From NCBI GenBank assembly GCA_965222115.1, contig CBDCTJ010000007.1, forward strand, positions 2,208,001 through 2,272,000: DNA of 64,000 bases. Reading direction: 5' to 3'. The translations under genes were made by a program, and so were the position numbers. This DNA comes from Planctomycetota bacterium. GTDB lineage: Bacteria > Planctomycetota > PLA2 > JAEUHO01. Every line of letters starts with the position of its first letter. Position 1 is the stretch's first letter. This document shows positions 2,119-20,567 of this stretch, one piece after another. Under the pieces are notes generated by a model. It saw only the letters and a list, made by a program, of their open reading frames with translations. It ran no database searches and was not told the DNA's origin.

Positions 2119-2160
2119 AAAAATGAACATGGCCCCGAGCCGCAAACTGCTCGGGGCCAT
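2119..2160 (-). terminator. Intrinsic terminator downstream of secretin 1
   Basis: Perfect 12-bp stem atggccccgagc (2129-2140)/gctcggggccat (2149-2160), followed on the minus strand by gttcattttt. Confidence 0.7.
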
Positions 2161-2204: not shown

Positions 2205-5045
2205 TTAGCGCATGAACTTCTCTTCCTGCTCGGTGAGATCGGTGATCTCGGCGCGCACGATGATCATCAGGTGGCTGACTTCATCGCTGCGGCCCTTACG
2301 GCTGAAAAGGAAGCTAAGCAACGGGATCTTGCCAAGGAAGGGGATCTCGCTCTGGCGGTCTACCGTGCGAATGTCCTTCAACCCGCCGATCACGATTGTG
2401 CCTTGGTCGGGCACGCGCACCGTGGTGCGAACCTGCTGGAGGCGCAGCTCGGGCAACTGAATGATGACCGGGGCGAACGATGAGGCGAGCGACGTTGCGA
2501 ACTCTTGGATGGGACGACGAAGGCGTGCCACCGTGGGCTGCAACTCAAGCGTGATGTAGCGACGGTCGTTGGAGACCGTGGGGCGTACGTCGAGCGTGAG
2601 GCCGTCCTGAATGATGCCCACAATCGGGTCAGCGATGAAGGAGGTCTGTGCGACCTCTACGTCGAAGTCCTGAATGTAGGAGATCTGATTCACCATCGTC
2701 AGGTTGGCGCGCTGCGTGTTGTAGACCGTTACGATAGGTGCGGTCAACGTGCGAGCGCTCAAAGACTTCTCCGTGGCTCGAACAATCATCGAGACCTCGG
2801 TGTCGTCGATGATGCTCATAGAGAGCGTGGCGCCACCGACGCTTGAGAGCACTTCGCCAAGCGGATTGTCGAAAATGTTCTCGGTACGTCCGCGGAAGTC
2901 GCCGTCCTGACCATCGTTGAAGTAGGCACCGGCGGAGGGCGGCAGTGCCGCACCCGTAGCCAGACCCGCGCCACCGTTGTCAAAACCTGCTGACGCCGCG
3001 TCTTCCAGACCGTTCGTGACGTCATCGAGGTTGACGAGCGTGCCGGGATTGGCACCCGCAACACCGTTGTTACCACCGAGGCCGCGGAAATCGACACCCA
3101 CGTCCTTCAGGAAGTTTTCGCTGACTTCAAGGAACCGGCTCTCGACCGTGACGACGATGCCAGCAAAGCCCCGCAAGTCGTCGAGGAAGTTGGCCACGCG
3201 CTGCTGAATGTCGGCGTTGGCCGTAACCACAAGATTTTGCTGACCTTGCGGAGCGATCTCGGCGCCTTCGGTCTCTTCCCAATACTTGGGCGATACCGCG
3301 CCCTTGATGAGCTCAATCAACTCGTCGGCCTGGCCGTAGGGGAAGATGGGCTCTTCAGACTCGGTTCCGAATAGCGGCGTTTCTTCATTGGCAAGATCAT
3401 CGGGACCCACCAAACGAATGGTGGGGGGAATGAAATCGGTCAAGCCCGACGTGAGGTCGGCGACCGGGTGGATTTCCACCTGGAACTTCTTGTCCTGATA
3501 CTCCTTGGAAGTGAAGACGATGATGTTGCCCTTGGGCGTCCAAATCACGTTTTCATCGCCCGAGTGCGAGCGCAACATTTCGAGCACCTGCTTGAGCGGT
3601 GCGTCTTGCACAACCAAGTTGGCAACCTTGGACTCATTTACGGACGAAGCGATTCGCGCGTCGACCATGATGTTGATACCGGTCTGAACACGAAGCGTGC
3701 TGATGACTTCACCAAACGCGCGGTCGTTGACGTCGAGGTTGACCATCGTGTTGCCGACGCGTGCCATGAGCTCGGCGGCTTCGGGATCGTCGTCTTGTTC
3801 GTTGAACGTGGGGCGTGAGGACTTGCGCAGATCCGTGATCTTGTCCCAGAACTTGCGGCTGGGCCACACAAGGATCTTGTCTTGCGGAATGCGCGTGGCC
3901 TGAATGTCGTCCATCCACTCGCGGAAGGCCTGCTTTTCTCGCTTGAGGTAGTCTACTTCCAACTGGTTGTGGCGAGCGCGCTCAGCGGCTTCACGAAGGT
4001 CTTGCGCCTTGGTGTTGTCGGGCTGCTCTTCCAGGATCTTTTCAGCGTACGCGATCGCGCTCACATAGTCGTCGCGATCGAATGCCTTGACCGCCGCACC
4101 CATCCACTGTTCAAGACGCTCAAGCTCAGCCAGGAGTTGCTGCTCTTCTTCCTTCGCCATTTCGGCAAGGGCGTCTTCGATGGCGCTTTGGCGTGCTTCC
4201 TTTTCGGCGGCTTCCTTCTGCGCCTTTGCTTGGCGGAGGCCGTTTTGTGCGTCGGACTCGATGGAACCCCACTCAACCTGGAAGGGCGATGTGTTGATGA
4301 TGAACAACGAGTCTTGGAACGCCTCAATCGCGTCGTCGTAGCGCTCATTGGTGAGGTGCATACGACCTACGTTGTTGAGCTTGCCCGCTTTGGTGCGTTG
4401 CTCTTCAATGCGCACCTTGGCGTTGAGCGCACGGCTCTTGGCGTAGTCGTCGGCGGCGTTGGCGCGGCTGCCAAGCATGGACATAACTTCGCGCATCATG
4501 AACTTGGCTTCGGCGTTGTCGGGAGAGATCTCCATCGCCTCACGCAAACGATCGCGCGCGTCGAGGTATTCGCCATTACGCATGTGGACGCGTGCGGCAT
4601 TGACCTTGCTCTGTGCCAAGAACCGTTCGCGGTCGGCTGTGGCCGCCGCGGGATCTACTGCCGGGGGGCCTTCCATGGGCGGGCCGCCATAAACAGGCAT
4701 CTCGTCGGTGAGCACCTTCTTGACGTCATCGGACGCGTCGCTATCGGATCCAAACACGCCTTTGGCCGGCGCGTCAGAATCGATTGCAACTGATCCCTTG
4801 GTTTCCGATTTCTTCGTATCCGCCTTATTCGAATCAGCGAGTCCGGTGGCTTTGGGACTGCTGCTCTTGTCAGCGAGCGTGCGCGTGGAATCGCCGCTTG
4901 CATCAAGCACGTCATTCAAGGAACGAGAGCGACATGAAGAAAGTCCAACCGTAAGCAAGACTGCAAATGCAACGACGCCAAGCGTGTGTGCGATTGCAGT
5001 GGTTGAACGGACTCGCCGCGAGAAAGTCATGGCAGTGCGCGTCAT
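2205..5045 (-). CDS. Secretin (GspD/PilQ superfamily) 1, lipoprotein with N-terminal TPR region
   Basis: ATG at 5045 with GGAG upstream; lipobox 'LLTVGLSSC'; TPR-like 'EYLDARDRLREAMEISPDNAEA'; N3-like 'QQNLVVTANADIQQRVANFLDDLR'; secretin signature 'TTVRVPDQGTIVIGGL...IPFLGKIPLLSFLF...LMIIVRAEI'. Confidence 0.9.
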   Translation of the reverse strand: MTRTAMTFSRRVRSTTAIAHTLGVVAFAVLLTVGLSSCRSRSLNDVLDASGDSTRTLADKSSSPKATGLADSNKADTKKSETKGSVAIDSDAPAKGVFGSDSDASDDVKKVLTDEMPVYGGPPMEGPPAVDPAAATADRERFLAQSKVNAARVHMRNGEYLDARDRLREAMEISPDNAEAKFMMREVMSMLGSRANAADDYAKSRALNAKVRIEEQRTKAGKLNNVGRMHLTNERYDDAIEAFQDSLFIINTSPFQVEWGSIESDAQNGLRQAKAQKEAAEKEARQSAIEDALAEMAKEEEQQLLAELERLEQWMGAAVKAFDRDDYVSAIAYAEKILEEQPDNTKAQDLREAAERARHNQLEVDYLKREKQAFREWMDDIQATRIPQDKILVWPSRKFWDKITDLRKSSRPTFNEQDDDPEAAELMARVGNTMVNLDVNDRAFGEVISTLRVQTGINIMVDARIASSVNESKVANLVVQDAPLKQVLEMLRSHSGDENVIWTPKGNIIVFTSKEYQDKKFQVEIHPVADLTSGLTDFIPPTIRLVGPDDLANEETPLFGTESEEPIFPYGQADELIELIKGAVSPKYWEETEGAEIAPQGQQNLVVTANADIQQRVANFLDDLRGFAGIVVTVESRFLEVSENFLKDVGVDFRGLGGNNGVAGANPGTLVNLDDVTNGLEDAASAGFDNGGAGLATGAALPPSAGAYFNDGQDGDFRGRTENIFDNPLGEVLSSVGGATLSMSIIDDTEVSMIVRATEKSLSARTLTAPIVTVYNTQRANLTMVNQISYIQDFDVEVAQTSFIADPIVGIIQDGLTLDVRPTVSNDRRYITLELQPTVARLRRPIQEFATSLASSFAPVIIQLPELRLQQVRTTVRVPDQGTIVIGGLKDIRTVDRQSEIPFLGKIPLLSFLFSRKGRSDEVSHLMIIVRAEITDLTEQEEKFMR

Positions 5046-5372
5046 TGAAACGTCCACTCCGAGCGAGGCCACGTGTGGGGGCAAGTCGTCCGGATCGTGC
5101 AACGCGCGGATGCCTCCCTGCACCCGCGAGTCATCCGTTTGGACGGCTCACGCAACCGTTGAGCGGGGGGCCTTCCGCCGCTCAACCTGGGGCCGCGCCC
5201 TCCTTCGACGCGACCTCCTCCCTGTGCGTCATAGGACACTGGAACGTGGTCATGTCTTTGTCATAAGCACCCGGCATAAACCGATTTCTGGCGCTTTGCC
5301 GCGAATCCGTTCGTCACGCGCCTGTGTCGGTGGTCGCGTGGCAAACAGGCGCCTACGAACTCGGGCTATCCG

Positions 5373-7166
5373 TCAGCGACACGTTCTTGCGTGTTGTGCT
5401 TTTTGTCGGTTGGTGGTGCACAGTCGCTCTGCGCGATTGCATGCCGCACGTGCCTCTTTGTCCCGCCCGAGCTCCTTCAAGAATCTCGCTCGGAGCAGCT
5501 CGACTTGGCAGTCGGGCGCAGGCAGCTCACCTGCCAAATGCTCCAATCGATCGAGCATCTCATCTTCCCTACCCACACCATTGACCATGCACGCCATGAG
5601 CAATGTTGCGGGAGCCCGACGTCCCAGCGCCCATGAGCGAAGGTAGGCCGCCTCCGCGTGCGCGCTTGCTCGCGCATCACTCGCCGAGATGGCGTGTCGC
5701 CGAAGGGCTTCGGCTCGCCAGAAGTGTGCTTCGGCATTGTTCGTGTCTCGTTCGCATAATTGATCGAGTTCGTCCAAAATGCGGCTTGGGACGCCGACCG
5801 AGGGTGGCGTCCCACGAATGGCCGCAGCGATTTCGTCAAGCCGCTTGGCATCTGCCATGTGCTCATGCGGATCGAGCAACGACGCGTTCTTCTCGGGCGA
5901 CAGAAAGGGGGTGACTAGTGCCGCCCCGCCGTAGCCACTGGACGCGGTTGCGTGGGTCGCGCGGTCGCCTCGATCCAATGCGCGATAGGCGCCGAGCATG
6001 TGCCTGAACAATTCGAGTCCTTCGACGGTCGGATCCTCGGTTGTACTCGTCGAGGGTGTGTTGGGTAGCGACTCGATCCACCGTTGGCGACCGAGGCCGC
6101 TATCCACCAGTAGGCCACGTGTGGTTGCTACGCCCGAAAGTTGTGCCCAGCGATAGCGACTGTGAGCAAAGAGCGATTCCACGGGTAGCGCGGCATCGTT
6201 CGCGCGCGACGTCGCGAGCAGGTCAATCCCTGAGCCCGGCACAACGGAAGCGTCCCATGCGATCCCCGCGAGTCCGGCAATCGTGGGTGCAATGTCCTGC
6301 AAGCATGCGATGTCATTTCGATCGTGATCTCGTTGTTCTGCACCCGTAATAAACATGGGCACCCGGAGCACTTCACCGCTCAACAACATGCCGTGACTCT
6401 CTTCGCCAAGGGCACCCAACGCCTCACCGTGGTCCGCGGCAACAATAACCGTGACGTTTCCTCGACCCCGTTCCGCCAAGCCTGTCATCAAGTGGCCAAT
6501 GGCATGATCCATGGCGGCGATATCGCCCACGTAGCCACGCGGCGTGCGATACGGGCGATGGGGGTCAAAGAGATGAACCCACAAGAAAACGTTGCTGTTG
6601 GCTTGCACACCATCCAAGTGTGCCAATGTGGTTGCGACGGTGTCTTTTGCGGCGCGTTCCGGTACGTTCAACGACGTGAGATCGTCGAGGTTCCCGTCGT
6701 CATAGTGCGTAAAACCCTGTTGCAGGCCATAGCGCTTGGACAATACACCTGCCGAAACAAACGCAGCCGTGTGCCAACCCGCGCGACGAAGGCGTTCTTG
6801 GATCAGGGGATATCCCCGTGTCGTAGAACGGGGCAGCGGCGGGCTGGCATTGACGCGCACACCCGTTGCGGCGGGGGGCAGCGCACTGAGCATCGACAGG
6901 TGCGCTGGCAACGTTAGAGGCACAGGACTAAACGCGTGGCGAAATCGAACGGCGTCCTTCGCCAATTGATCCAAATTCGGAGTATCTAGCCCTTGAGGTG
7001 CCTTGTCACCCGCCAGGGCACGAATGTAGTCGTGTCGCAACGTATCCGGCGTGAGCAGGAGAATCGTCTTGCCGGACCCGACGGGCGCTTCGCCGACATC
7101 GCGATTCAACAACCAAAGTGCCGCCGCAATCCCAAGCGCTGCAAGTAGCAAGAAGACCCTACGCAT
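5373..7166 (-). CDS. Sulfatase-like (alkaline phosphatase superfamily) protein with N-terminal membrane anchor and C-terminal TPR-like helices
   Basis: 'TILLLTPDTLRHD', 'SPVPLTLPAHLSM', 'FLWVHLFDPHRPY', 'AADHGEALG', 'VLRVPM'. The start at MRRVFLLL (7166) is inferred. Confidence 0.85.
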   Translation of the reverse strand: MRRVFLLLAALGIAAALWLLNRDVGEAPVGSGKTILLLTPDTLRHDYIRALAGDKAPQGLDTPNLDQLAKDAVRFRHAFSPVPLTLPAHLSMLSALPPAATGVRVNASPPLPRSTTRGYPLIQERLRRAGWHTAAFVSAGVLSKRYGLQQGFTHYDDGNLDDLTSLNVPERAAKDTVATTLAHLDGVQANSNVFLWVHLFDPHRPYRTPRGYVGDIAAMDHAIGHLMTGLAERGRGNVTVIVAADHGEALGALGEESHGMLLSGEVLRVPMFITGAEQRDHDRNDIACLQDIAPTIAGLAGIAWDASVVPGSGIDLLATSRANDAALPVESLFAHSRYRWAQLSGVATTRGLLVDSGLGRQRWIESLPNTPSTSTTEDPTVEGLELFRHMLGAYRALDRGDRATHATASSGYGGAALVTPFLSPEKNASLLDPHEHMADAKRLDEIAAAIRGTPPSVGVPSRILDELDQLCERDTNNAEAHFWRAEALRRHAISASDARASAHAEAAYLRSWALGRRAPATLLMACMVNGVGREDEMLDRLEHLAGELPAPDCQVELLRARFLKELGRDKEARAACNRAERLCTTNRQKAQHARTCR

Positions 7167-7276
7167 GACGACGAAGGTAGGTCCCGCATCTTTGCGTATC
7201 AAGTCTCGATGTTACTCACCACGCGTTCCGACTCGGCATTGGGCTTGTTCACCGAAACCCTCCTCCGACCGGCATC

Positions 7277-7852
7277 TCACTGAGGCTTGCGCGTGCCCTC
7301 AAACACGACGTCTGTCACGCCCAGTCGCAAAAACTCGTTGATGATGGCCATAACATCGCCGTGTGGCACCGAGCCGCCGCGTGGTTCGGGTGCGACAATC
7401 TCGCCCTTTCGCTTGCCAGGCTCAACACCTTGAACTTGACGTTGCATCGAGTTGCGAAGCGCGGCCATGACCGCTTGGTAATCGCGCACGCGCACCGGTG
7501 ATTCATGTAGATGGCCGCGCCACTTCGTAGGTAACGCATACGTTCTTGGCAAGTGTCCCACGCGCATCACTGTGCGTTGCTGTTCAGTGCCTAGGTTGCG
7601 TACGAACACCTTGACCTTGCATGCGTCCAAGTCCTCGGCCGGTGTTGGTATCGACGCCATGCCGCGATCATGTGGCAATGCTGCATCGATGCGCGAATCG
7701 ATGTCCTTGAACTTGAGACTCAGTAGAAAGAAGATGATCAACTGAAACACGATGTCGATCATCGGCGTCATGTTGAGTTCACTGTCTTCGCCGGCCGCGG
7801 CACGTTTCCACGCGCCGACTGTTCCGGATCCCTGACCAATCGGTAGAGCCAT
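7277..7852 (-). CDS. exbD: ExbD/TolR family biopolymer transport protein (copy 3)
   Basis: 'ELNMTPMIDIVFQLIIFFLL' TM segment with the conserved Asp; RBS AAGGAG before ATG 7852. The ORF-track start at 8059 overlaps the previous gene. Confidence 0.85.
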   Translation of the reverse strand: MALPIGQGSGTVGAWKRAAAGEDSELNMTPMIDIVFQLIIFFLLSLKFKDIDSRIDAALPHDRGMASIPTPAEDLDACKVKVFVRNLGTEQQRTVMRVGHLPRTYALPTKWRGHLHESPVRVRDYQAVMAALRNSMQRQVQGVEPGKRKGEIVAPEPRGGSVPHGDVMAIINEFLRLGVTDVVFEGTRKPQ

Positions 7853-7890
7853 AGCCCTCTCCTTTGCGACATATGGGTCGGACGCAATGA

Positions 7891-7933
7891 GGGTGGGGGG
7901 CGGGTCAGACGGGGGTGGGGGGCGGGTCAGACG
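7891..7933 (+). repeat. 21-bp G-rich direct repeat x2 (gggtggggggcgggtcagacg)
   Basis: Identical copies at 7891-7911 and 7913-7933, in the gap between two exbD paralogs. Confidence 0.85.
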
Positions 7934-7997
7934 TTGCGAGAAGCCGTCAGCCTGGAATCGACCGACGGCATCGCATGTTTGTGGATGTTCGCGCTGG

Positions 7998-8636
7998 TTA
8001 CTTACCCTGTGCGCGCGCGGCACGTTCGGTGCTTGTGAGCGGCGTTGCTTTGCCCTCAAAGACCACGTCGGTGATGCCCAGCTTTAGATAGACATTGAGC
8101 ACGCCCATGACATCGCCATGGGGCACCGCCCCGCCTTTGGGTGGCGGCGCAACGATTTCGCCTTTGATTTTGGCGTTGTCTACCGTCTTGCCTTGGTCTT
8201 CGGCCGTATACGCGGCTTGAAGAGCGGCCACCACCTCGGGGCCGAGGCGCTTGCGAATGGCTTCGTAGAGCTGATTGAACTTGCTGTCGTACTCTTCAAC
8301 GCGAGCGGTGTTGTTGGCGGCCTCTTCCTTGGAGCGCCCTTTCCACTGCTTCGGCAAGAGAAAGATGTTCTTGCTGTTTTCAATCTTCATCATCGTGTGT
8401 TCGCTGGGCTTACCCAAGTCGCGCCGGAAGACCTTCACTTTGACCGTGTTGAGATCTTCGGGGAAGGTGGGCGTGGCTGCCATGCCACGATCCTTGGGCA
8501 ACATGCTGTCGATGCGACGATCGATGTTCTTGAACTTCAGACTCAGCAAGAAAAAGATGATCAACTGGAACACGATGTCAATCATCGGTGTCATGTTGAG
8601 TTCGGTATCTTCCGGTTCGGGGAGATTCAGTGCCAT
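7998..8636 (-). CDS. exbD: ExbD/TolR family protein (copy 2)
   Basis: 'ELNMTPMIDIVFQLIIFFLLSLKF'; C-terminal 'VPHGDVMGVLNVYLKLGITDVVF'. Confidence 0.88.
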   Translation of the reverse strand: MALNLPEPEDTELNMTPMIDIVFQLIIFFLLSLKFKNIDRRIDSMLPKDRGMAATPTFPEDLNTVKVKVFRRDLGKPSEHTMMKIENSKNIFLLPKQWKGRSKEEAANNTARVEEYDSKFNQLYEAIRKRLGPEVVAALQAAYTAEDQGKTVDNAKIKGEIVAPPPKGGAVPHGDVMGVLNVYLKLGITDVVFEGKATPLTSTERAARAQGK

Positions 8637-8649
8637 CAGAGCCCCCTTT

Positions 8650-9156
8650 CTACTTCTCGTCTTCTTCGGGAAGTTTCTTCACCGAGAATTGTAGCTTGTA
8701 GACCTTGATGTCCTTGTGGGCGCACGCTTGCATCACCCACTGCACGTACTTCCACTTCGCGCCACGGTCGGCGTTGATCATGATCGGCACTTTGCTCGCG
8801 CCGTCTTCTTCACGCAGATCGGGGTCATTGCCAATCAGACCGCGCAGCGCGTCCTGAAGATTTTGAATGGCGTCGTCGGCGTCACCGGGATCTTCCGAGG
8901 AAAGATCAAACTCGCGATCGCGGAAAATGACCTTGCCGTCGCCCGTGAGGTTGACGGTAAAGCGCTTGACCTCGGCTTTGGGGTCTTCCTTGTCCTCATT
9001 GCCCATCGAGGCGATGGGAAGCTCCACCGGGAAGAACTCTTTCTGCGACAAGTCAATGGTGAGCATGAAAAACACGACCAAGAGGAAGGTCATGTCAATC
9101 ATGGGCGTCATGTTCATCTTGGCGTCTTCTGTTTCAATCAGAACAGGTGCTGCCAT
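8650..9156 (-). CDS. exbD: ExbD/TolR family protein (copy 1, canonical length)
   Basis: 'MNMTPMIDMTFLLVVFFML', 'VELPIA', 'IMINADRGAKWKYVQWVMQAC'. Confidence 0.92.
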   Translation of the reverse strand: MAAPVLIETEDAKMNMTPMIDMTFLLVVFFMLTIDLSQKEFFPVELPIASMGNEDKEDPKAEVKRFTVNLTGDGKVIFRDREFDLSSEDPGDADDAIQNLQDALRGLIGNDPDLREEDGASKVPIMINADRGAKWKYVQWVMQACAHKDIKVYKLQFSVKKLPEEDEK

Positions 9157-9266
9157 GCGTGGCTCCTCGATGTCGGGTCGGACGCCTGGAAATGATTCGC
9201 GCTTCTTGGTTTGTGGGTTTGTGCGCGGGGAGCGCGAACCCCCGCAACACTAGCGTATCAGGTCGT

Positions 9267-9959
9267 TTAGCGGCTGCGGAAGCGCTCGGTCATCTCTTCC
9301 AAGACTTCGGCGAAGTGGATGGAGATGCGTGTGGCCTTGTTTCGGAAGTATTGGTAGGCCGTAACCGCGGGAATCGCTACCAACAATCCCAAGAACGTGG
9401 TGACGAGCGCGGCAGAAATACCACCGGCAAGGTCGGCTGGCGTGACCTTGGCACCCTTTTCCACGATTGTTTCGAACGCCGTGATCATACCCGACACCGT
9501 ACCGAACAGGCCGAGCATGGGTGCCACGTTGGAGAGGAAGAGCATCCAGCTCACCTTTTGCTGCAGCTTGACCGCTTCCACGCCCGCGGCTGCATCGACG
9601 GCTTCCTTCACTTTGGGATAGCCTTCGTTCAATCGGGGCAGCCCCGCCGCCAACGAGCGCGTCACGAAGTTGGGCTCGGACTCGCAGAGTTCGAGTGCTT
9701 CTTGGTACTCGTCTTCTTCCAGCAATGCTTCCACCTCGTCGATGATCTCGGGGGGGCAGAGCTTGTCGGCGCGGACGTTTACGGCGTACTCAATAATGAG
9801 GGCCACCGTAGCGATGGACAGGGCGATAATCACCCAACCAATGGCGCCGCCATCCTCGAGAATGCCGCCGATGGACATCGCGTGAGCGTCGGGAGCAAAC
9901 GCCAAGGTGCATACCGAGGCGAAACCTAGTGAAACGATCAAAGTGCTGAGCTTGGGCAT
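9267..9959 (-). CDS. exbB: MotA/TolQ/ExbB proton channel family protein
   Basis: 'NVAPMLGLFGTVSGMITAF' and 'LAGGISAALVTTFLGLLVAIPA'; ATG 9959 preceded by GGAG; signal-like N-terminus ending AHA. Confidence 0.93.
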   Translation of the reverse strand: MPKLSTLIVSLGFASVCTLAFAPDAHAMSIGGILEDGGAIGWVIIALSIATVALIIEYAVNVRADKLCPPEIIDEVEALLEEDEYQEALELCESEPNFVTRSLAAGLPRLNEGYPKVKEAVDAAAGVEAVKLQQKVSWMLFLSNVAPMLGLFGTVSGMITAFETIVEKGAKVTPADLAGGISAALVTTFLGLLVAIPAVTAYQYFRNKATRISIHFAEVLEEMTERFRSR

Positions 9960-10369
9960 GGCCGCATGGACTCCGAAAACTGGGACCACGAGGGTTGGGT
10001 GAAAACGCGGAGGACTCCCTCGATTCCGTCCGCGACCAATACGTGAAATCCTGAACTGAATGTTCGTTGGTTGAAAATTCGTCGACCCGAGACGATTGAT
10101 TGGAGGGCGAGTGCTCCCAGCGTCGCTATCGCGCTACGAGAACCCGCCACCCAATTCGACGCGCGTCAGATGACGCTGCCGCCGATCTACCTGCCTCCGG
10201 GCGAGCCGAAGCGTACCCGATCGCAGGAAATGCCGCTACTTCCGGCGAGCCCGGATTAATCGTGAAGTACGCGCCGCGCCGTTTCCGGTGCGATGAACGT
10301 GGTTCATGAGCGTCTGGGATTCGATTGGATCTGGGATTGGATATCGCCCGGAATCGGATGTTGAGCGCC

Positions 10370-11755: not shown

Positions 11756-11842
11756 CGTTGGGGACATCCTTACGTGAGTCAAGGCGAATGCACTTCTGCG
11801 CGTCGTCGGACGGGGCGCGCGACCGTTGCTTTGCGAAGCCAT

Positions 11843-14800
11843 CTAGTTATCTTCCGTGGCGGGCTGTGTGGAACCCGCTGCTTTCGGCATTGGGACCGTG
11901 TCCGCGGACATGCTGAGCTTCATACGTAGCGTCTCAATGCGCTTGCTCAGCGCGGTGAACTCCTCCGGGGTTTCCGGTCGAACGCCTACGCCCACCGTGG
12001 GGTCGCCCATCGCAAGGCGCTTGAGCAACCTTGTTGAGAGTTCAGCCTTCTCTTTGGCATCGCCGGAGTCACCGCTCACGCTTTGAAGCATTTCGGCCCA
12101 CTTGGTGGCGGCGGCGGCGCGAATGATCTGCGCGCTCCACCACTCGGCGCTTCCGTCTTCCACACCAAACTGACGCGACTTCACCAATCCCTCGCACAAA
12201 CGCAGGGCCTTGGGTTTGTCTTCCAGGCGCTCCGACTCGGAGTACACCCAGGCAAGCGCCAAGCGGAAGTCGATGGTGTCGTTGGCGTGCAACTTGTAAA
12301 ACGCAGAGTCGAATCCACAGGGGTGAAAACTGGCCACCACTTGCTTGGCTTCACGCTCGGGCTGAGCGCGTGTGACGTAGGTACGGAAGTGTTCGACGCC
12401 GGCGAGGTAGCGTCGGTTGGCCGCGTCATTGGCAAATACAGGCACCGCAAAGCCACCACTCTTGCCAAGTGTCTGCGCCACTTGCTTAAGTTCGGCCACG
12501 GTCTTGACTCGGGGCAGCACGTAGCGGCGACTGACATTGTCAACATTGCTTGTCCATCGCACGACCGCGTAATCGCCCTTGATATGTCCAACGAGCAAGT
12601 CCGTATTGGCGGAAACATTGGCAATACCCGCCTGCAAGCGCTCAAGCGCTTTACCGACAAGTTTCCTTCGTTCCTCGTTTGAATCGGCACGCCGTGCCAA
12701 CTCGTAATACACGGTCCCGAGCCATCCCGTGACCTCTTGGCGATCCGACTCTTTGGTGCCCTCAAAGTTCAAGTAATCCTCGGCCAACTCCTTGCACCGT
12801 TCCCAGTTCTCCTTGACTTCGGGCCGCAACTTGGCCGCCTTCAAATAGTTGTGGGCAAAGATCTTGACGTTTGCGGGGTTCTGCTTGACGCCCGACTTCT
12901 TGCGCTCGATGTAGAGACGGTAGTAGTAGCCCACAGAACGTGCACGCGGGTCATAGATCTTGAGCTTGAGTTCGGCCAACTCGTTGTCGAGCGCGGCCTT
13001 GCGCGTGATGAGTTCACCTTCTTCGGCCACAAACTTGTTGATCTTCTCGTTCAGGCGTTTGATGTCGGCCTTGGCTTCGGGAATGCCCTTGGATGCCTCT
13101 TCGAAGTCGGCTTTGGACACACCAAAGTCTTCGCCCTCCGTCTGCTGCTTCTCCCAGATTTTTATGGCCTGCTCGTATTTCCCGATCAGGTTCTTGACGT
13201 CACCGACGCGCTCACGCGCCTTGAAGATGAGATCACCCGTGGACTTGATTTTCTTGTTGAGCCCCATTGGCTGCTCACGGGTCCCGTACAACTCTTGCGT
13301 AATCTCGCGAATGCGCGTCTCAAACACCTTTGCTTTGCCGGCAAAGTGCTTGGCCATGGAACTCGTGATGCTGTCAAGTCGCGGGTAGGTGGCATCGGCT
13401 TCGATAAGCTGCGTTAAGTACCGTTCGGCCTTGTCTACCTCACCCTTGCCAATGTGGGCAAGCACGAGGTGGCCAAGCGTGCCGGCGTAGATCTGCTTCT
13501 GACCGCCACTGCCGTTTTTGAACTGGCTATACTTGGCGTGAAAGCCATCCAAGGTCTTGAGGATCTCGTCGAACTGTTCCTGTTTGTAGTGCGCCTCCGC
13601 TTTCCAATAGAGCGCCTCGCCAAGAGCCGCCTGACGCCGACTGGCAACCGTAGCGAACTTGGCAGCCTGGTCCTTGGCCTCCTTGGAGTTCCAGTAGGCG
13701 GTCGCAGCCTCGAATGCCTTTAGGCTGCCATTCCAGTCATCTTGCTCGTGGGCAACGCGCATGAGCTGTACCCATGCCGCGTCTTGTCGCGGGTGGGAGG
13801 GGTCTTGCGTTACTTGCTTGAACAACGGAATGGAATCTTGATACGCCTTCTTCCAGCCCGACGCCTTAGTGCGTTTCTGCTTACGTGCCTTGCTCAGTGC
13901 CTCGCGGGCTTCATCCCAAATCGTGCGGGCACCCGAAGGATGGTTGGGGTAGTCGGTTTGGAAACTCTTACGAATATCGGCGAAGCGTTTCCGGTAGGCC
14001 TCGTCGCCGGTGAGTTCATAGAGTTGCTTCCATTTGCGCATGGCCGTCTGGCGGAAGTTGCCCATGGCGATCATGTTCTGATCGGTCGCCGTACCGTCGG
14101 TCGGCAACAAGCCGTCCATCCAGATTTCATGCAGCGCGTCATACGCCAGAGCACAACCAACGAGGTCGCCGCTTGATTCGGCGGCTCTGGCAATCTTCTG
14201 CCATGACGGAACAATGAGTTCCTTGATGGACGCTTCGTCTTTGTTGGAGGCGAGGATCGCTTCTTGGAACGTGCTTATGGCTTCATCCCACTTTTCTTGG
14301 GCGTAGAAACTCTTGCCGATGCGCTCCAACACCTTGGGGTCGGCGCGGCTTGCCCCCCCGCTACCGCCCATCACGATTTCTTGAAGCAATGCGTTGGCAC
14401 GATTCTCAAGATAACCCTTTCCTTCGGTACGGGCGAACGCAGCAGCCTTGTTGGCATATTCGGTAGCCTCGGTGGTGCGTTCACGAAGAAGCTCAATGCG
14501 TGCCAATTCGATGAGGGCGAGTATGCCGTCGTCGTATTTGCCAGCGCGCGGCACGAGCTTGAGCATCTGTCCCACAACCTTGGACGCATCTTTGTAGAAA
14601 TTATAGCCCGCAATGCGGCCCGCTTGGCGGCACGTGCGCGCGTAGAGGTAGTAGCCGCGGCAGATGATCCGCTCTTCGTCGTTCGATACATTGTCCGTTT
14701 GCATGACGGTGTCGAACCACTCATTGGCAAAGCGGTAGTTTTCTTTCTTTTGCTCGTCATCCGTGGCGCATTTGGCCAACTCCACGTAGTTCTTCCCGTA

Positions 14801-15562
14801 GATCAACGCCGCGTGTACGGCAACAAGTTGTCCGTCTCGGAGCGTGATGTAGTCCTCAAGTGCATTGCCGGCGCTCTTGAATGCGTTGACCGCAGCTTCG
14901 CTGCAGCGTTCCATGACCAATGCGCGATAGTGTTGGCAGCGTACCCATTCAAACTGGGCGATCTCGGCGCGCAGGGGTGCGTCTTGGGCGTCGTGGCCCT
15001 CGCGCAAACCATCAAAGTATGAGATGGCCTTTTCCACCATGGATTTGGCATCGCTGATGACCGTCTCGACGTCGGTCTTGCGCTTCTTTAGACGCTCAGC
15101 GTCGGGGGCGAGCGTTTCGCGCGCCCAAATCACGAATCCCAATCGCGTGCGACCTGCGCTCATCTTGGCCTCAAGCGCGCGCGGGTGGCTGGGGTTGTTC
15201 TCTGCGAACTTCTCCATCGCCTGGCTCGCCTGCTCGTAGGCGGCAAGCACATCTTTGTAGGGCACGCTGGAGCGACCCCGCAAACCGTCAGCACGTTGAC
15301 TATCGAGACGCGCGAGGCCGTACCGCGCGAGTTCCTTTTGCTCGTCGGTGCCGGTCGCCAGGCTGTTTTCCAAAACTTGGCGTGCGTACACGAAGTAAAA
15401 GTCCTTACCCCTTCGCTTGCCAAGTTCTGCGAGTTTCTGGGCGAACTCGAAGTCATCTGCGCCGGCTTCTGCGTGGGGTTGCCATGCGGGACACGCCAAG
15501 GCGAGCGCCAACGCTAGGGATAGATAAATCGGGGTGCGAGCAACGCGTGACATGGAGTTCAT
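11843..15562 (-). CDS. Large exported alpha-helical/TPR-like protein with central coiled coil
   Basis: 1239-aa ORF; signal peptide 'IYLSLALALALACPAWQPHAEA'; TPR-like 'IGKSFYAQEKWDEAISTFQEA' and 'EALYWKAEAHYKQEQFDE'; heptad-rich K/E stretch around aa 745-870. Confidence 0.8.
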   Translation of the reverse strand: MNSMSRVARTPIYLSLALALALACPAWQPHAEAGADDFEFAQKLAELGKRRGKDFYFVYARQVLENSLATGTDEQKELARYGLARLDSQRADGLRGRSSVPYKDVLAAYEQASQAMEKFAENNPSHPRALEAKMSAGRTRLGFVIWARETLAPDAERLKKRKTDVETVISDAKSMVEKAISYFDGLREGHDAQDAPLRAEIAQFEWVRCQHYRALVMERCSEAAVNAFKSAGNALEDYITLRDGQLVAVHAALIYGKNYVELAKCATDDEQKKENYRFANEWFDTVMQTDNVSNDEERIICRGYYLYARTCRQAGRIAGYNFYKDASKVVGQMLKLVPRAGKYDDGILALIELARIELLRERTTEATEYANKAAAFARTEGKGYLENRANALLQEIVMGGSGGASRADPKVLERIGKSFYAQEKWDEAISTFQEAILASNKDEASIKELIVPSWQKIARAAESSGDLVGCALAYDALHEIWMDGLLPTDGTATDQNMIAMGNFRQTAMRKWKQLYELTGDEAYRKRFADIRKSFQTDYPNHPSGARTIWDEAREALSKARKQKRTKASGWKKAYQDSIPLFKQVTQDPSHPRQDAAWVQLMRVAHEQDDWNGSLKAFEAATAYWNSKEAKDQAAKFATVASRRQAALGEALYWKAEAHYKQEQFDEILKTLDGFHAKYSQFKNGSGGQKQIYAGTLGHLVLAHIGKGEVDKAERYLTQLIEADATYPRLDSITSSMAKHFAGKAKVFETRIREITQELYGTREQPMGLNKKIKSTGDLIFKARERVGDVKNLIGKYEQAIKIWEKQQTEGEDFGVSKADFEEASKGIPEAKADIKRLNEKINKFVAEEGELITRKAALDNELAELKLKIYDPRARSVGYYYRLYIERKKSGVKQNPANVKIFAHNYLKAAKLRPEVKENWERCKELAEDYLNFEGTKESDRQEVTGWLGTVYYELARRADSNEERRKLVGKALERLQAGIANVSANTDLLVGHIKGDYAVVRWTSNVDNVSRRYVLPRVKTVAELKQVAQTLGKSGGFAVPVFANDAANRRYLAGVEHFRTYVTRAQPEREAKQVVASFHPCGFDSAFYKLHANDTIDFRLALAWVYSESERLEDKPKALRLCEGLVKSRQFGVEDGSAEWWSAQIIRAAAATKWAEMLQSVSGDSGDAKEKAELSTRLLKRLAMGDPTVGVGVRPETPEEFTALSKRIETLRMKLSMSADTVPMPKAAGSTQPATEDN

Positions 15563-15726
15563 GAGATAGGGGACCTCGCGGTACAGAAGCCGAATAGGAG
15601 ATACGCGCGAATAGAACCAGATCGCCCATGCTCATGGATTGGGATTCCATGAAGCGGGCGAAGCCTTACCCAGCGCGCACGTCGCGATCGCGCCGAAACG
15701 GCGCATGGAGATGTGCTCGCATCCAA

Positions 15727-15768
15727 GAACACGTATCCCAGGACACGTATTTCGGGACACGTATTTCG
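15727..15768. repeat. 14-bp direct repeat x3 (ggacacgtatttcg)
   Basis: gaacacgtatccca / ggacacgtatttcg / ggacacgtatttcg in the intergenic region upstream of the 15562 gene. Confidence 0.8.
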
Positions 15769-16089
15769 GGTTACGAACGGCGGCATTCTAAGGATGCGCC
15801 CTCTGACGGTCAATGCGACCCAAGGCACCCGCCGCGATTGCTTCCCCAAAACCAAGCAGGACGACCCGAACTCAGAAACCCGAAGGGCAGCAATTCGACG
15901 GGCAGGGCATCCGCGCAAAACGAAGAAAGCCTCACCGCTTCACGGCGAGGCCAGAACGGGCGTCGGGTCGGACGACCTGCACAGCAGTATACACGTGAAT
16001 TCCAACGATGCAAGCCCGCATGACGATCGCGAGCATTGACGGCCTGTGGCGACTCGCAGCACCTGCCACCTCGCTTCCGCGAACCCAAC

Positions 16090-16135
16090 AAAAATGAGCG
16101 AAGGCCTTGAACCCTTCGATTCAAGGCCTTCTTTT
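16090..16135. terminator. Probable (bidirectional) intrinsic terminator after secretin 2
   Basis: Perfect 12-bp stem gaaggccttgaa (16100-16111)/ttcaaggccttc (16120-16131); tttt follows on +, gctcattttt on -. Confidence 0.7.
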
Positions 16136-16172
16136 CGCCACTCGGACGGGTCTCGCTACATCCCCGGATCGA

Positions 16173-19100
16173 CTAGCCGCCGGGGATCATCATGGGCACG
16201 GGCTCCATCATGGGCATCATCGGATCACACGGCGAACAAGGCGGCGCGGGATTCACGATGACGGGCTCGCACGGATCGCACACGTTGCAGGGTGCGGGCG
16301 CGGGCTCCACCATGACCGGAGCAGCCACGGGGCAAGGCACCGGCTCGGCCGGAATGTTGCACTGACCGCCTTCGCAGTCATCGCAATCTTCAAAGTCCAC
16401 GATGGGCACGTAGTCGCGTACGTCGAGCGGGGGGATGTCCAAGTTGTCCTTGGGCTCGCGCTCGGACAGCGAGACAACATTCGCACGCACCAAGATCATC
16501 AGGTTGCGGCGATTGACGAAGTTGCCCTTTCGCGTGAGCAGCATCGAGAGAATCGGAATCTTGGAGAGAATCGGTACTCCGCTCTCACGCACATCCTTCT
16601 CGTAGAACTTCATGCCGCCGATCAGCAACGTGCCGCCATCGGGCATGGTCACTGTTGTGCGGACCTTGCTCACTCGCAACTCGGGAATCTGCAATGTGAC
16701 GGGTGCGTTGGCACCAATCGGGCCCGATGCCAAGTTCGTGGTGAACTCGCCGATGGGACGAACCACTGTGGCAACGGTGGGGCGCAGTTCAAGCTGAATG
16801 AAACGACGGTCTGCCGAGACAACCGGGCGCACATCCAATACGACACCTTCCTGAATGGTCTGGATGACCGGGTTGGCGATATTGGACGCCTGGGCAATCT
16901 CAACTTCGTAGTCCTGCACATACGAAATCTGGTTGAGCACCGACACGTTGGCGCGCTGCGTGTTGTAAACCGTAATGCGCGGTGCGGTAATCTCCTGGAT
17001 GCGCTCCGACTTCTCAACCGCGCGAAGAATGACTTCTACGGCGGTGTCATCGAGGTAGGTGTGCTGGAAGGAGAGGCCACCCGTGTTGCGCAAGCGGTCG
17101 GGATCGCCGAAGCGACGAACCACGGTGTCGAAGAGGTTCTCGACACGACCGGCGTACGCGCCGTCGGAGTTGTCGTTGTAGAAGATACCGGCGTCGTTTG
17201 CCGTACCGACCGAGCTGGGCTCGGGGTTGGTACCAAACGGGACACCTGACGGGTTCGCCGACGTGCCAAAGAACACGTCATCGATTACGACGGGCGGACC
17301 CGAACCCTGTGTCTGGACCGGATTGACGCCGCTACCCAAGCCACGCACGTCTACACCTACGTCGCGCAGGAAGTTGTCTTCCGCGGTGAGGAAGCGCACT
17401 TCGAGGTCCACGAGAATGCCGCTGTTTGCGCGCAACTGACGAAGCAAATCGGAAATCTGTGCGTGGATCGCGGGCGTATTGCGCACGATCAGGATGTTGT
17501 TGCGGGGCTCGATGCTGGCGGGCTCTTCCCAGGCCGGCTCACCACCAATGGTGGTCTTGATCAGTTCGACCAAGTTTTCCGCAGCAATGATGGGCTCGGG
17601 TTCGGGGAGCTCAGGGGGTTCGGGTGCTGCGAAGTTCGACGGGACAAGATTGATGTCTTGGCCGATGAAATTCTGAATGGCTACGGCGAGGTCCTTGACG
17701 TCGTAGTAGTCAAGCTTCATCGTCTCCTGAACTTCGTCGGGCATGCTGATGTAAATCACGCCGCCGCGCGGGCCCCAACGCAGGTCGTACTGGCTGGTGA
17801 GCACGTCGAGCAGGTTGTAGACACTCACGTCGTCGAGTTCGAGCGTGAGTTCGATCTCTTCACCCTTCTCATCGCGCACCTTCGGCGTGACGTGGAAGTT
17901 GAGACCGGTGTAGACGCGGAGGTACTCGACGGCGCGGTCGAGCGTGGCGCCTTCCCACACAAGGCCCTTGACGCGCTTCTTGCGAAGTACGGCCATGACG
18001 GCTTCATTGGCAACGTCGGTTTCGCCCACGTCGCTGTCGCCCACGGAACGAGGCGTGCGGATGGCGATGTCTTCCAACCAGTTATCGGGGAAGCGAACCA
18101 CGTCGATCTGAGGAAGGGCGCTGCGCTCGAGGTCGAGCATGATGCTCTTCCATTGGTTGTCAAAGCGACGACGGTTCTCTACCTGGTTCTTCATGTGTTC
18201 CGCGTCGTGCGACATCTCAATGATGCGATTCGCGTCACAGTTGCCGGGGTCGGAGCGCAAGATGTTCTTGGCGTAGGTGCGAGCGAGTTCGTATTCGCCA
18301 CGGCGGAAGGCGCGGTGTGCACCCTCAAACCAACTGCGGATACGCGCCATGCGTTGTTCGCGAATGCCCGCGAGTTCGATTTCCTTTTCTTCTTGGGCAT
18401 CACGAATCTGCTCTTGGCGGTTGCGACGCTCCAAGACTTCGGCTTGGTACGACGTGTTGTCAATCAAGTCGCGAATGGCGGCGGCGCTCGTTCCAAAGTC
18501 ACCGGTCTCGTCGTACCAAGAAATGATGGCCAAGGCTTTTTGGAATTCCTTGACGGCTTCCTTGTAACGCTCTTCACCGGCAAGTTGAGTACCGTTGTTC
18601 AGATGCTTGCGCACTTCAGTAGAGGCCTGATCGCGGCGCACTTGCGATACCGACGTGCGGTCTTCGTGGTACTGATCGGCAGTGGATGCACGGTTGGGAG
18701 AAAGGCCGTGCCAGCCTTCGCGGGCAGCTTCGCTCTGCGGATCAATCTGAAGCGCCTTATAGAAGAAGTCGCGCGCCGCGTCCAAATCGCCAACCTCAAC
18801 GGCCGCACGACCTTTCTTTACGTACTGTTCGACGAGGAACTGATTGCGGCTACTGATGACATTGCCCATGTCTTCGGGCGTCATGCCACCCGCGGGACCC
18901 GCGTCACCATTGTCTGGTGATGGGGCTGGTAGGCCTTCCATGGTTGGACTGCTTCCGGCTGCACTACCCGACGTATCACCTGTTACCGGTGCAATGGCCG
19001 GAACAACGGGTGCAGCGGGCTGCATGAATGGAATCGCAGCAGCGGCATGGTTGGCAGCCGTGGTCGCTTCGACAACTGTGCCGTGTACTGCGTTACCGGC

Positions 19101-19439
19101 TTTCTCCGCAACGCCATTTGCCAGAGTTGCAGGCTCGGGGAATGCACCCTCAGCCTTCTTCGCAGCGCGCTTTGCTGCATCCTTCACAGCAGATGCTGCT
19201 TCGGACGCAAGCGGTTGCGCCTTAGCGGGAACGGGCGGTGTCCCGTATTCGGACGCATCAGGCGCGGCATCGGAATCGGATCCGAAGATGCCTTTCTTGC
19301 TATCAGGCGCGTCGCTCTTAGACGTGGACGATGCCGTATCGAGATCGCCGGTAACCGACGGACTCTGACAACCGACCGAAATGAAAAGCATTCCAATGAA
19401 TGCAAGGAATGGGGCAATACGCTTCATCCCGAAATCCAT
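16173..19439 (-). CDS. Secretin (GspD/PilQ superfamily) 2, lipoprotein with TPR region and Cys/Pro-rich C-terminal tail
   Basis: Lipobox 'MLFISVGC'; TPR 'DLDAARDFFYKALQIDPQSEAA'; N3-like 'NNILIVRNTPAIHAQISDLLRQLR'; secretin 'TTVTMPDGGTLLIGG...GVPILSKIPILSMLL...LMILVRANV'. Confidence 0.9.
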   Translation of the reverse strand: MDFGMKRIAPFLAFIGMLFISVGCQSPSVTGDLDTASSTSKSDAPDSKKGIFGSDSDAAPDASEYGTPPVPAKAQPLASEAASAVKDAAKRAAKKAEGAFPEPATLANGVAEKAGNAVHGTVVEATTAANHAAAAIPFMQPAAPVVPAIAPVTGDTSGSAAGSSPTMEGLPAPSPDNGDAGPAGGMTPEDMGNVISSRNQFLVEQYVKKGRAAVEVGDLDAARDFFYKALQIDPQSEAAREGWHGLSPNRASTADQYHEDRTSVSQVRRDQASTEVRKHLNNGTQLAGEERYKEAVKEFQKALAIISWYDETGDFGTSAAAIRDLIDNTSYQAEVLERRNRQEQIRDAQEEKEIELAGIREQRMARIRSWFEGAHRAFRRGEYELARTYAKNILRSDPGNCDANRIIEMSHDAEHMKNQVENRRRFDNQWKSIMLDLERSALPQIDVVRFPDNWLEDIAIRTPRSVGDSDVGETDVANEAVMAVLRKKRVKGLVWEGATLDRAVEYLRVYTGLNFHVTPKVRDEKGEEIELTLELDDVSVYNLLDVLTSQYDLRWGPRGGVIYISMPDEVQETMKLDYYDVKDLAVAIQNFIGQDINLVPSNFAAPEPPELPEPEPIIAAENLVELIKTTIGGEPAWEEPASIEPRNNILIVRNTPAIHAQISDLLRQLRANSGILVDLEVRFLTAEDNFLRDVGVDVRGLGSGVNPVQTQGSGPPVVIDDVFFGTSANPSGVPFGTNPEPSSVGTANDAGIFYNDNSDGAYAGRVENLFDTVVRRFGDPDRLRNTGGLSFQHTYLDDTAVEVILRAVEKSERIQEITAPRITVYNTQRANVSVLNQISYVQDYEVEIAQASNIANPVIQTIQEGVVLDVRPVVSADRRFIQLELRPTVATVVRPIGEFTTNLASGPIGANAPVTLQIPELRVSKVRTTVTMPDGGTLLIGGMKFYEKDVRESGVPILSKIPILSMLLTRKGNFVNRRNLMILVRANVVSLSEREPKDNLDIPPLDVRDYVPIVDFEDCDDCEGGQCNIPAEPVPCPVAAPVMVEPAPAPCNVCDPCEPVIVNPAPPCSPCDPMMPMMEPVPMMIPGG

Positions 19440-19760: not shown

Positions 19761-20567
19761 ATGACGTCGAACGACACATCCGGGGATCGCGCACTCGTGG
19801 AAGTGCTTGCTTGGATGCGACGCGCCGCGGGACCCATGCTGCCATCCGATCAACCTCCAATTGCATTTGGCGGGGCCGCATCCACGTCGATTTCAACCCG
19901 TGACCCATCCTCCGGCGTAGCTTCTGAGCAGCCTTCCACGTCCGTCAAAGCCCATCGTTCTGCGAGTTCAACGCCTTCGCTCTCCTCAGAGGAACGTAGT
20001 AATGCGATGCAACGATTGGCTGCGGACGCGGCGTCGTGCACCCGCTGCGTCTTGTGTGAGACCCGCAATCAGGTTGTGTTTGGTGAAGGCTCCCTCAAGC
20101 CCCGGTTGGTGGTCGTGGGCGAGGGGCCTGGCGCCAAGGAGGATCAGACGGGACGCCCATTTGTTGGGCCCGCAGGGCAGTTGTTGGACCGAATGTTGGC
20201 CGCGATTGGCTTGGATCGCACCTCGGTCTACATCTGCAATGTCGTCAAGTGTCGTCCGCCAAGCAACCGCGATCCGCGTCCGGGAGAGGTTGGCGCATGT
20301 CGTCCATTCCTCGATGAGCAATTGAGACTCCTAGATCCCGAGCTTGTGCTCACGGTGGGGGCGCCGGCAAGTCGCACGGTGCTTCAGACCCAGCGCGGAA
20401 TCACCAGCTTGCGGGGCCGCATTCACACGACGTCGCGCGGCCTACGCGTGCTCCCCACGTTTCATCCGGCCTATCTCTTGCGCAATCCCGCTGCAAAGCG
20501 CGATGCCTGGGCGGATATGAAGAAGGTCGCAGCGCTTCTGGAGATTGAGATTCCCAGCCGCAGATAG
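19761..20567 (+). CDS. Uracil-DNA glycosylase family 4 (Fe-S)
   Basis: 'CTRCVLC', 'VGEGPGAKED..GRPFVGPAG', 'NVVKCRPP.NRDP', 'TFHPAYLLR'. Confidence 0.95.
   Translation: MTSNDTSGDRALVEVLAWMRRAAGPMLPSDQPPIAFGGAASTSISTRDPSSGVASEQPSTSVKAHRSASSTPSLSSEERSNAMQRLAADAASCTRCVLCETRNQVVFGEGSLKPRLVVVGEGPGAKEDQTGRPFVGPAGQLLDRMLAAIGLDRTSVYICNVVKCRPPSNRDPRPGEVGACRPFLDEQLRLLDPELVLTVGAPASRTVLQTQRGITSLRGRIHTTSRGLRVLPTFHPAYLLRNPAAKRDAWADMKKVAALLEIEIPSRR

Follow-up and report, generated by a model that had tools for sequence, protein, structure and literature searches.

A 64-kb stretch of a Planctomycetota genome (hereafter the window: the whole stretch that was analyzed, C7:2208001-2272000, from an assembly of 4.55 Mb in 7 contigs that is 90% complete) carries at positions 2205-19439 a cluster in which two paralogous secretin genes bracket genes for two exported TPR proteins, one ExbB/TolQ-type protein and three ExbD/TolR-type proteins. 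Known secretins serve as outer-membrane conduits for filamentous phage export and for machines driven by ATPases, and known TolQR/ExbBD-type motors work through TonB, TolA or Glt proteins. The arrangement is more than chance, since it recurs across the phylum, and we infer with moderate confidence that a TolQR/AglRQS-like motor with CpoB-like TPR scaffolds acts on or through a PilQ-like pair of lipoprotein secretins. A phylum-wide cluster that joins secretins to such a motor would add a new class of partner for TolQR/ExbBD-type motors.

The cluster consists of nine co-directional genes on the minus strand. A first-pass annotation, made from the letters of the window, had described these nine genes with the secretins bracketing the TPR, ExbB and three ExbD genes, and we recovered all of them at the positions it gave. 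The genes are listed below in order of transcription, followed by two terminator-like hairpins and the neighboring UDG gene.

16173..19439, minus strand: sec2, 1088 amino acids (aa); Pfam Secretin (1.2e-25) and TPR
11843..15562, minus strand: large TPR/coiled-coil protein, 1239 aa; Pfam TPR; signal peptide, no membrane helix
10370..11842, minus strand: small TPR protein, 490 aa; Pfam TPR; exported
9267..9989, minus strand: ExbB/TolQ-type protein, 240 aa; Pfam 7.1e-27
8650..9156, minus strand: ExbD1, canonical ExbD/TolR, 168 aa; Pfam 2.3e-18
7998..8636, minus strand: ExbD2, divergent ExbD, 212 aa; Pfam 1.6e-7, N-terminal part only
7277..7852 (open reading frame to 8059), minus strand: ExbD3, tandem paralogue of ExbD2, 191 aa from its probable start; Pfam 3.9e-8
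5373..7202, minus strand: alkaline-phosphatase-superfamily (sulfatase-fold) protein, 609 aa; PF00884 5.4e-22, Phosphodiest 8.3e-11
2205..5123 (probable start 5045), minus strand: sec1, open reading frame of 972 aa; Pfam Secretin (5.2e-27) and TPR
16100..16131, minus strand: terminator-like hairpin 3' of the sec2 stop, 14-bp stem with T-run
2129..2160, minus strand: terminator-like hairpin 3' of the sec1 stop, at the end of the cluster, 12-bp stem
19761..20567, plus strand: family-4-type UDG gene, Pfam 1.4e-39; context, not a functional part

The first-pass annotation had named separation of the secretins from the TPR-exbB-exbD block in related genomes as the outcome that would speak against its idea, and what we found in three samples was linkage. 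Among order-level relatives, a sec1/sec2-type secretin lay on the ExbB contig within ~10 kb in 25 of the 30 in which ExbB was found, the remaining five being assemblies of 420-910 contigs; the 15 loci fetched from this group, which were selected since both genes shared one contig, were all collinear with the window (15/15). For a comparison across species, 464 sec2 relatives were confirmed, with record titles placing them in the Planctomycetota, and the best 80 of them were used, each species being represented by a single genome. Among these best 80, 51 had ExbB/ExbD within 10 kb downstream and 16 had too little flank, giving 51/64 decidable loci. The third sample was an even one across the phylum, comprising 76 Planctomycetota genomes that were each at least 85% complete. 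At a threshold of E <= 1e-40, a sec-type secretin was hit in 58/76 genomes and lay within 12 kb of an ExbB hit in 38 of those. Two secretins were counted in 22 of the 38 linked genomes, with the two in one of these 22 (G044) being two pieces of one frame. When the surroundings of the best ExbB were examined in 14 of the 18 genomes without a hit, a diverged secretin-domain open reading frame was found in 5; genome G040 was a sixth linked genome beyond the 38, which brings the total to at least 44/76.

The gene order was also recovered in other genomes, with variations. The cultured Engelhardtia mirabilis Pla133 carries UDG, sec2, large TPR, small TPR, ExbB, three ExbD genes, a gene for a 205-aa protein, and sec1; six other MotA/ExbB matches exist in this strain besides that of the cluster (7 in all). 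In G040, a gene for a 636-aa membrane protein comes first, then two secretin genes, genes for a TPR protein (1188 aa) and a TPR-like one (358 aa), and ExbB, each gene overlapping the next by 4 bp; the order in G054 resembles it. The 636-aa first gene of G040 had no match in the genome of the window and matched no Pfam family. In G103, a PilM-like gene and two bitopic genes are followed by a 1619-aa TPR-secretin, a 32-bp gap, ExbB and two ExbD genes; separate TPR genes are absent. The G103 secretin (locus L139, 5117-9976) has ~1300 aa of TPR-rich N-terminal sequence, for which the idea of a fusion with the large TPR protein received an hhalign probability of only 44%. These results indicate that, G103 with its lack of separate TPR genes apart, the two exported TPR proteins travel with the motor.

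Both secretins of the window belong to the secretin family by PF00263 (sec1, 94.9 bits; sec2, 90.5 bits; cut-off 27.5), and they are 36% identical to each other. The sec2 protein begins with a lipobox (..SVGC, Cys24) and continues through a long low-complexity linker, a TPR region at ~190-440, an N0/N1-like region and the secretin domain at 807-989 to a Cys/Pro-rich tail; its Secretin_N match of 20.9 bits was below the cut-off. From its probable start at 5045, sec1 likewise has a lipobox (..LSSC). At least 90% of the 16 sec1/sec2 sequences in an alignment keep the lipobox Cys (Cys24 of sec2) and, as judged from this motif, both secretins are predicted lipoproteins. Models of the named secretins scored far lower than their cut-offs, namely, 65 and 70 bits for PilQ (TIGR02515, cut-off 284) and 80 and 70 bits for GspD (TIGR02517, cut-off 351), and pilMNOP was not found beside sec1 or sec2 in the window. 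Compared with solved structures, the secretin profile was closest to PilQ and phage pIV (PilQ 9sh1, 2.2e-22), with an N0-like stretch present (PilQ N-domain 4ar0, 6.7e-7). Residues 163-273 of sec1 matched the Tgl pilotin model weakly (1.2e-6, far below cut-off), and the combination of a lipid anchor with an N-terminal TPR region suggests a built-in pilotin. The tail of sec2, ~75 residues encoded at window positions 16173-16400, has a repeated C-x-x-C and P-C-x-P spacing and has no equivalent in sec1.

Two further secretins in the same genome are separate genes from sec1 and sec2: a 697-aa secretin linked to pilM, and one of 877 aa on contig C3 that is followed by GspE, GspF and GspH. The pilus and type II clusters thus own their secretins and need neither sec1 nor sec2. 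In total, the genome has 7 secretin-domain matches and 8 matches to the T2SSE ATPase family, with none of the latter within 260 kb of the window.

The translations and hydropathy of both TPR proteins indicate a signal peptide and no membrane helix. An open reading frame of 959-1365 aa was present between sec2 and ExbB in 49/50 loci, and by a crude open reading frame call, another of at least 350 aa followed it in 38/50. BLASTP of both TPR proteins of the window against those of G040 found nothing; the large one was homologous only by profile comparison, in which it formed a single family across the phylum (hhalign, 99.6% against its counterpart in G040 and 99.9% against that in G039). Both families match CpoB/YbgF and BamD-type TPR proteins. 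The YbgF/CpoB model matched the large protein at 2.1e-5, below its cut-off, and the profile of the small family matched CpoB (6g5s, 1.1e-8) and BamD/YfiO (3qky, 8.6e-6). The JGI name for relatives of the large protein is 'TolA-binding protein'. At locus L051 the frame of the large protein is broken into open reading frames of 566, 198 and 377 aa. By their record titles, this locus and L065, which also bears the cluster, would come from Candidatus Kuenenia stuttgartiensis and Candidatus Paceibacteria.

As to the motor, ExbB matched PF01618 well above its cut-off (94.1 versus 22.9 bits), and the three genes ExbD1 and ExbD2/ExbD3 scored 67, 31.9 and 33.8 bits against PF02472 (cut-off 25.4). Among NCBIfam models, TolQ (84 bits, cut-off 221) outscored ExbB TIGR02797 (47.5 bits, cut-off 206) for the ExbB protein, and the TolR model matched ExbD1 at 3.7e-10 (40.5 bits, cut-off 127); all three scores are below their cut-offs. 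The motifs LGLFGTVSGM and ALVTTFLGL can be read in the ExbB translation and TPMID in all three ExbD translations, just as the first-pass annotation had noted; their ExbB Thr and ExbD Asp residues are, we assume, those of the proton channel. The Asp was invariant in 27/27 aligned ExbD sequences, as were the other residues of T16, P17, I19 and D20. ExbD2 has an insertion in its periplasmic part, and ExbD3 is 54% identical to it in the alignment. The start of ExbD3 is probably at 7852 (MALPIGQ...) and not at 8059, and with this start the overlap with the neighboring ExbD gene is gone.

The protein between ExbD3 and sec1 had been called a sulfatase. It does have the sulfatase fold (PF00884, 5.4e-22), but the formylglycine residues are replaced: its T-L-P-A-H aligns with C-A-P-A-R of choline sulfatase 6fny, so that Thr and His stand in place of the formylglycine Cys and Arg, and the S1 formylglycine motif C/S-x-P-x-R is not present. 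The T-x-P-x-H pattern was kept in 36/36 tblastn matches (duplicate loci included) and resembles that of the Thr-nucleophile phosphodiesterase branch of the alkaline-phosphatase superfamily. One N-terminal membrane helix is predicted for this protein.

Next, we looked at whether the motor is that of TonB. The first-pass annotation had seen no TonB, receptor or TolB in the window, and they lie outside it or were not found: the genome has one TonB_C match, which has a TonB-dependent receptor as its neighbor and is ~2 Mb from the cluster, another receptor match elsewhere, and no TolB_N match (in an assembly that is 90% complete). The TonB_C gene (G000:C7:217803-220120, locus L026) lies in the order receptor-TonB-LpxD and has no adjacent ExbB or ExbD. 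The cluster ExbB is the sole MotA/ExbB-family match in the genome, and among order-level relatives, a single ExbB match was found in 24/35 and TonB_C in 34/35. With one ExbB and a TonB_C in this genome and in most of the order, the cluster motor probably also energizes TonB there. Across the phylum, TonB_C was absent in or beside the cluster in every genome listed. A tree in which groups were set by neighbors and not by similarity split 11 TonB_C-adjacent ExbBs from 25 secretin-linked or orthologous ExbBs (support 100/99, 100% of 200 bootstraps), with the bootstrap not fully settled and several branches long; two loci were dropped, L075 (no hit) and L018 (frame running off the contig). By their sequences, then, the secretin-linked ExbBs form a clade distinct from the TonB-adjacent ones. 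Both kinds of ExbB occur together in several genomes, among them G060, G037, G039, G040, G034 and G030, and as a control, 0/13 TonB-adjacent ExbB paralogues shared a contig with a sec-type secretin. Furthermore, 6/38 linked genomes, which are 88-95% complete, had no match to the Pfam TonB_C model, which may miss diverged TonBs (G048, G055, G069, G086, G087 and G092), and in 5 of these 6, the linked ExbB was the only ExbB hit.

In the mechanism that we propose, a proton-driven 5:2 motor of ExbB and two or three ExbD paralogues would lie in the inner membrane. A CpoB-like pair of TPR proteins (~1000-1300 and ~400-500 aa) would bridge the enlarged periplasm from the ExbD periplasmic domains to the TPR/N0 ring at the base of the secretins, and the outer membrane would hold an anciently duplicated, lipid-anchored PilQ-like secretin pair, each member with its own N-terminal TPR region. 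Many lineages add the Thr-type alkaline-phosphatase-fold enzyme and some a PilM/GspL-like platform. Proton flow might change the state of the secretin gate (open or hold) or pull something through the pore; proton-motive force, and not a dedicated ATPase, would then drive the outer-membrane step. Our guess at the cargo is import of macromolecules or the handling of a surface fiber.

Contact between motor, TPR proteins and secretins is proposed here from gene families, export signals and linkage, and several observations weigh against it. A second secretin without a motor between was found in 12/64 of the decidable loci described above and neither in 1; 20/58 secretin-bearing genomes of the even sample were unlinked; and in two complete genomes of 9.3-9.5 Mb the orthologous ExbB lay megabases from both secretins. 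UDG, sec2, a sulfatase-fold gene and sec1 are together in G037, with the TPR-motor block on another contig; sec2 and sec1 are adjacent in G039, with the block elsewhere; and a TPR-ExbB-ExbD block without secretins occurs in G036 as well. Conserved synteny alone may also mislead in a neighborhood that is unusually stable, since the most constant neighbor of sec2 is UDG, an unrelated cytoplasmic gene without a visible signal peptide that lay upstream in 52/53 loci whose flank on that side spans 5 kb or more (co-directional in 44, median distance 850 bp). The caveat of the first-pass annotation that there are several transcription units is borne out by the hairpin after sec2 (16131-16100) and by spacers of 610, 380 and 327 bp. 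Moreover, in 10/53 loci with this flank, a co-directional PilM-domain protein (563-588 aa, with a membrane helix after the PilM domain) lay 2.1-3.2 kb upstream of sec2 and was followed by two proteins with a single N-terminal helix, and pilM, pilN and pilO precede pilQ in the same place. A pilus-type platform may thus be the real partner of the secretins, although no ATPase or platform gene was seen beside these PilM-like genes. Finally, the cluster ExbB is the only one in its genome while a TonB and two receptors exist there, and the pattern is the same in most of the order.

Several of these observations would fit an explanation that we consider possible but rather unlikely, in which two independent modules are old neighbors kept together by inheritance or co-regulation. 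One would be a motor with TPR proteins of the Tol-Pal or Agl-Glt kind, serving envelope upkeep, division or gliding-type force, and the other a pilus-type secretin pair whose platform and ATPases lie elsewhere. It would account for the TPR-motor block standing alone in G037, G039 and G036 and the secretin pair standing alone in the 12 loci, for an unrelated gene such as UDG being an equally conserved neighbor, and for the terminator-like hairpin after sec2. The PilM/GspL-like and bitopic genes directly upstream of sec2 agree with it too, as do the nearness of the secretin profile to PilQ, a PilM-like and pilin-like module inside the window (34669-46818), and four full-length T2SSE ATPases in the genome that have no secretin nearby. 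Arguing the other way, most lineages have the motor block flanked by the two paralogous secretin genes, and in G040 it follows the pair, with codons that overlap; ExbB starts 32 bp after the secretin in G103; the fetched clusters that were annotated showed no ATPase, platform protein or prepilin peptidase; and none of the 13 TonB-adjacent ExbB paralogues is near such secretins. That the cluster ExbB-ExbD is an ordinary energizer of TonB and receptors elsewhere, with the TPR proteins as accessories and the secretins as unrelated neighbors, is in our judgment very unlikely. The sole MotA/ExbB match, the one TonB_C gene beside a receptor, the second receptor and the same pattern in the order speak for it, and against it stand the lack of a TonB_C match within or next to the cluster in all genomes listed, the separate clade of TonB-adjacent ExbBs (with G060, G037, G039, G040 and G034 holding both kinds), the linked genomes without a TonB_C match, and the higher score of the TolQ model than of the ExbB model; in addition, a second ExbB may be missing from a genome that is 90% complete, and the linkage to secretins would be left unexplained. 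An equally slim chance attaches to the idea that motor and TPR proteins help to carry, insert or multimerize the secretins across the enlarged periplasm and the wall, as pilotins and GspA/B (ExeA/B) do for other secretins, and do not drive transport through them. TPR lipoproteins are the usual secretin pilotins, the TPR region of the secretin weakly matches the Tgl pilotin model, and the TPR families resemble BamD/YfiO and CpoB. However, a lipid anchor plus a TPR region would make these secretins self-piloting, the TPR-motor block persists away from secretins in several lineages, and we know of no earlier case in which a motor with two or three ExbD paralogues serves assembly only.

We thus return to a motor acting on or through the secretin pair, which the first-pass annotation had put forward as a secretin system powered by proton-motive force, while naming a cognate TonB and receptor elsewhere as a point that would count against it. 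The phylum-wide linkage and an ExbB clade of its own speak for the proposal. The reservation holds in part for the present genome, where TonB and a receptor lie elsewhere and the cluster ExbB is the sole one; across the phylum, the clade is separate and six linked genomes have no TonB_C match. Three features were not part of that annotation: the PilM/GspL-like genes near sec2 in some lineages, the lipid anchors of the secretins and the Thr-type motif of the supposed sulfatase. As a candidate TonB/TolA-like anchor, we considered a 583-aa membrane protein upstream of the TPR gene in G039 and rejected it: its family has many copies (9 matches in the genome of the window), and its hit of the prenyltransferase type was only weak.

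Within the cluster, the intergenic gaps from sec2 to sec1 are 610, 0, 380, 110, 13, 145, 74 and 327 bp, the start of the small TPR gene directly abutting the stop of the large one. The hairpins after the sec2 and sec1 stops are the two strongest terminator-like ones on the minus strand, and a promoter-like site lies 5' of the large TPR gene. Since terminator-like sites in the region were no more frequent than in shuffled sequence (22 versus 20.3; combined promoter and terminator totals were not above shuffles either), only the position and strength of the sec2 hairpin count. The sigma-54 promoter pattern had 30 matches in comparison to 35.8 expected, none usefully placed; Rfam found no match in the window; and the small open reading frames of the spacer between sec2 and the large TPR gene had no relatives in any fetched locus. 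Unrelated housekeeping genes flank the cluster, with an ABC permease, RidA and a HAD hydrolase on one side and UDG on the other. Beside UDG, at 20726-24901 on the plus strand, is a gene whose 1391-aa product has many TPR matches and some six predicted membrane helices; in 6 of the fetched loci, relatives of it were found upstream of sec2, for the most part at the family level.

Farther along the plus strand, at 25655-46818 and 15-27 kb from the cluster, the window holds a module that resembles a pilus or type II system and has no ATPase or secretin. Its features are as follows.

25655-27673, plus strand: sigma-54 activator with FHA and GAF domains
27673-31023, plus strand: HEAT-repeat protein
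34669-37470, plus strand: protein with two FHA domains, one membrane helix and a 570-aa periplasmic part
37514-39448, plus strand: PilM-like protein of 644 aa with a helix
after the PilM-like gene, plus strand: bitopic protein of 319 aa
40510-43629, plus strand: TPR protein with two helices
43551-44342 and 45553-46818, plus strand: N-methyl pilin-like proteins
within 25655-46818, plus strand: laminin-G protein

In the distant locus L104, the PilM-like, FHA and activator genes are found again, there upstream of sec2. The FHA protein at 34669-37470, 15 kb off, had no TonB_C match, and a GltG-type transducer is not in the cluster.

The cluster may bear on how planctomycetes move large molecules across the outer membrane. 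Passages of PMC5394234 report that Planctomycetes take GFP and dextran of 10-40 kDa into the periplasm and that the proton uncoupler CCCP blocks this uptake; its abstract calls the uptake mechanisms 'unclear', and dextran is described there as bound to fibers arising from crateriform structures. The cluster supplies named candidate genes for CCCP-sensitive macromolecule uptake. On a bolder view, which we think unlikely, it would encode a new class of trans-envelope machine in which a TolQR-type proton motor, and not an ATPase, works via giant periplasmic TPR scaffolds on a secretin built from two paralogues, possibly as mixed rings. Such a machine would account for the uptake of proteins and polysaccharides into the planctomycete periplasm that uncouplers block, and perhaps for the crateriform structures with their fibers. 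As a cultured carrier of the cluster, E. mirabilis Pla133 is suited to testing, and for Planctopirus limnophila, passages of PMC11958385 describe gene deletion tools and a strain without three pilQ-like genes.

Compared with known systems, the cluster is similar to Agl-Glt/Nfs of Myxococcus in having one TolQ-like and two TolR-like genes and, in tandem, genes for two exported TPR proteins, one very large and the other of medium size. In PMC3169522, Table 1 gives GltD as 1191, GltE as 471, AglR as 245, AglQ as 162 and AglS as 194 aa, against 1239, 490, 240, 168 and ~190-212 aa in the cluster, a likeness by sizes and gene order alone. In contrast to Agl-Glt, the cluster shows neither a GltG/GltJ-type TonB-like transducer nor GltC nor the GltA/B/H/K barrels, and has two secretins instead; Glt names or models were absent from NCBIfam matches at E up to 10 and from the 40 profile hits among 8000 candidates scored. 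The likeness to Tol-Pal lies in the best matches of ExbB to TolQ, of ExbD1 to TolR and of the TPR families to CpoB/YbgF, all below cut-offs. Unlike in Tol-Pal, the TPR proteins are 4-10x longer than CpoB and secretins are present; TolA/TonB_C is absent from the cluster, and so is Pal, for which no aimed search was made. The TonB-ExbB-ExbD system shares the motor family and uses proton-motive force for a transport step at the outer membrane, but the cluster has no TonB, and its presumed outer-membrane partner is a multimeric secretin and not a plugged barrel. With the type IVa pilus and the type II secretion system the cluster has in common a secretin with an N0-like domain nearest to PilQ and, presumably, a lipobox and TPR region that act like a built-in pilotin. 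It differs from them in lacking an ATPase, platform protein, pilin and peptidase and in having a paralogous secretin pair and a proton motor.

The main text of PMC12204202 describes PVC-group clusters in which a TPR gene is followed by a tolQ-like gene, two heterologous tolR-like genes and a vWA transducer, with a function stated there to be unknown; no vWA gene was seen in the cluster, whether in the window or in E. mirabilis, and the word 'secretin' is absent from that main text. None of the secretin or motor terms is present in PMC5287468. In the literature searched, supplements apart, we found no description of a linkage between secretins and ExbB/ExbD or TolQR for Planctomycetes, which agrees with the earlier suggestion that this is not a named system. 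All parts of the cluster belong to known families, and it is their combination, together with the conserved secretin pair, that matches no named system.

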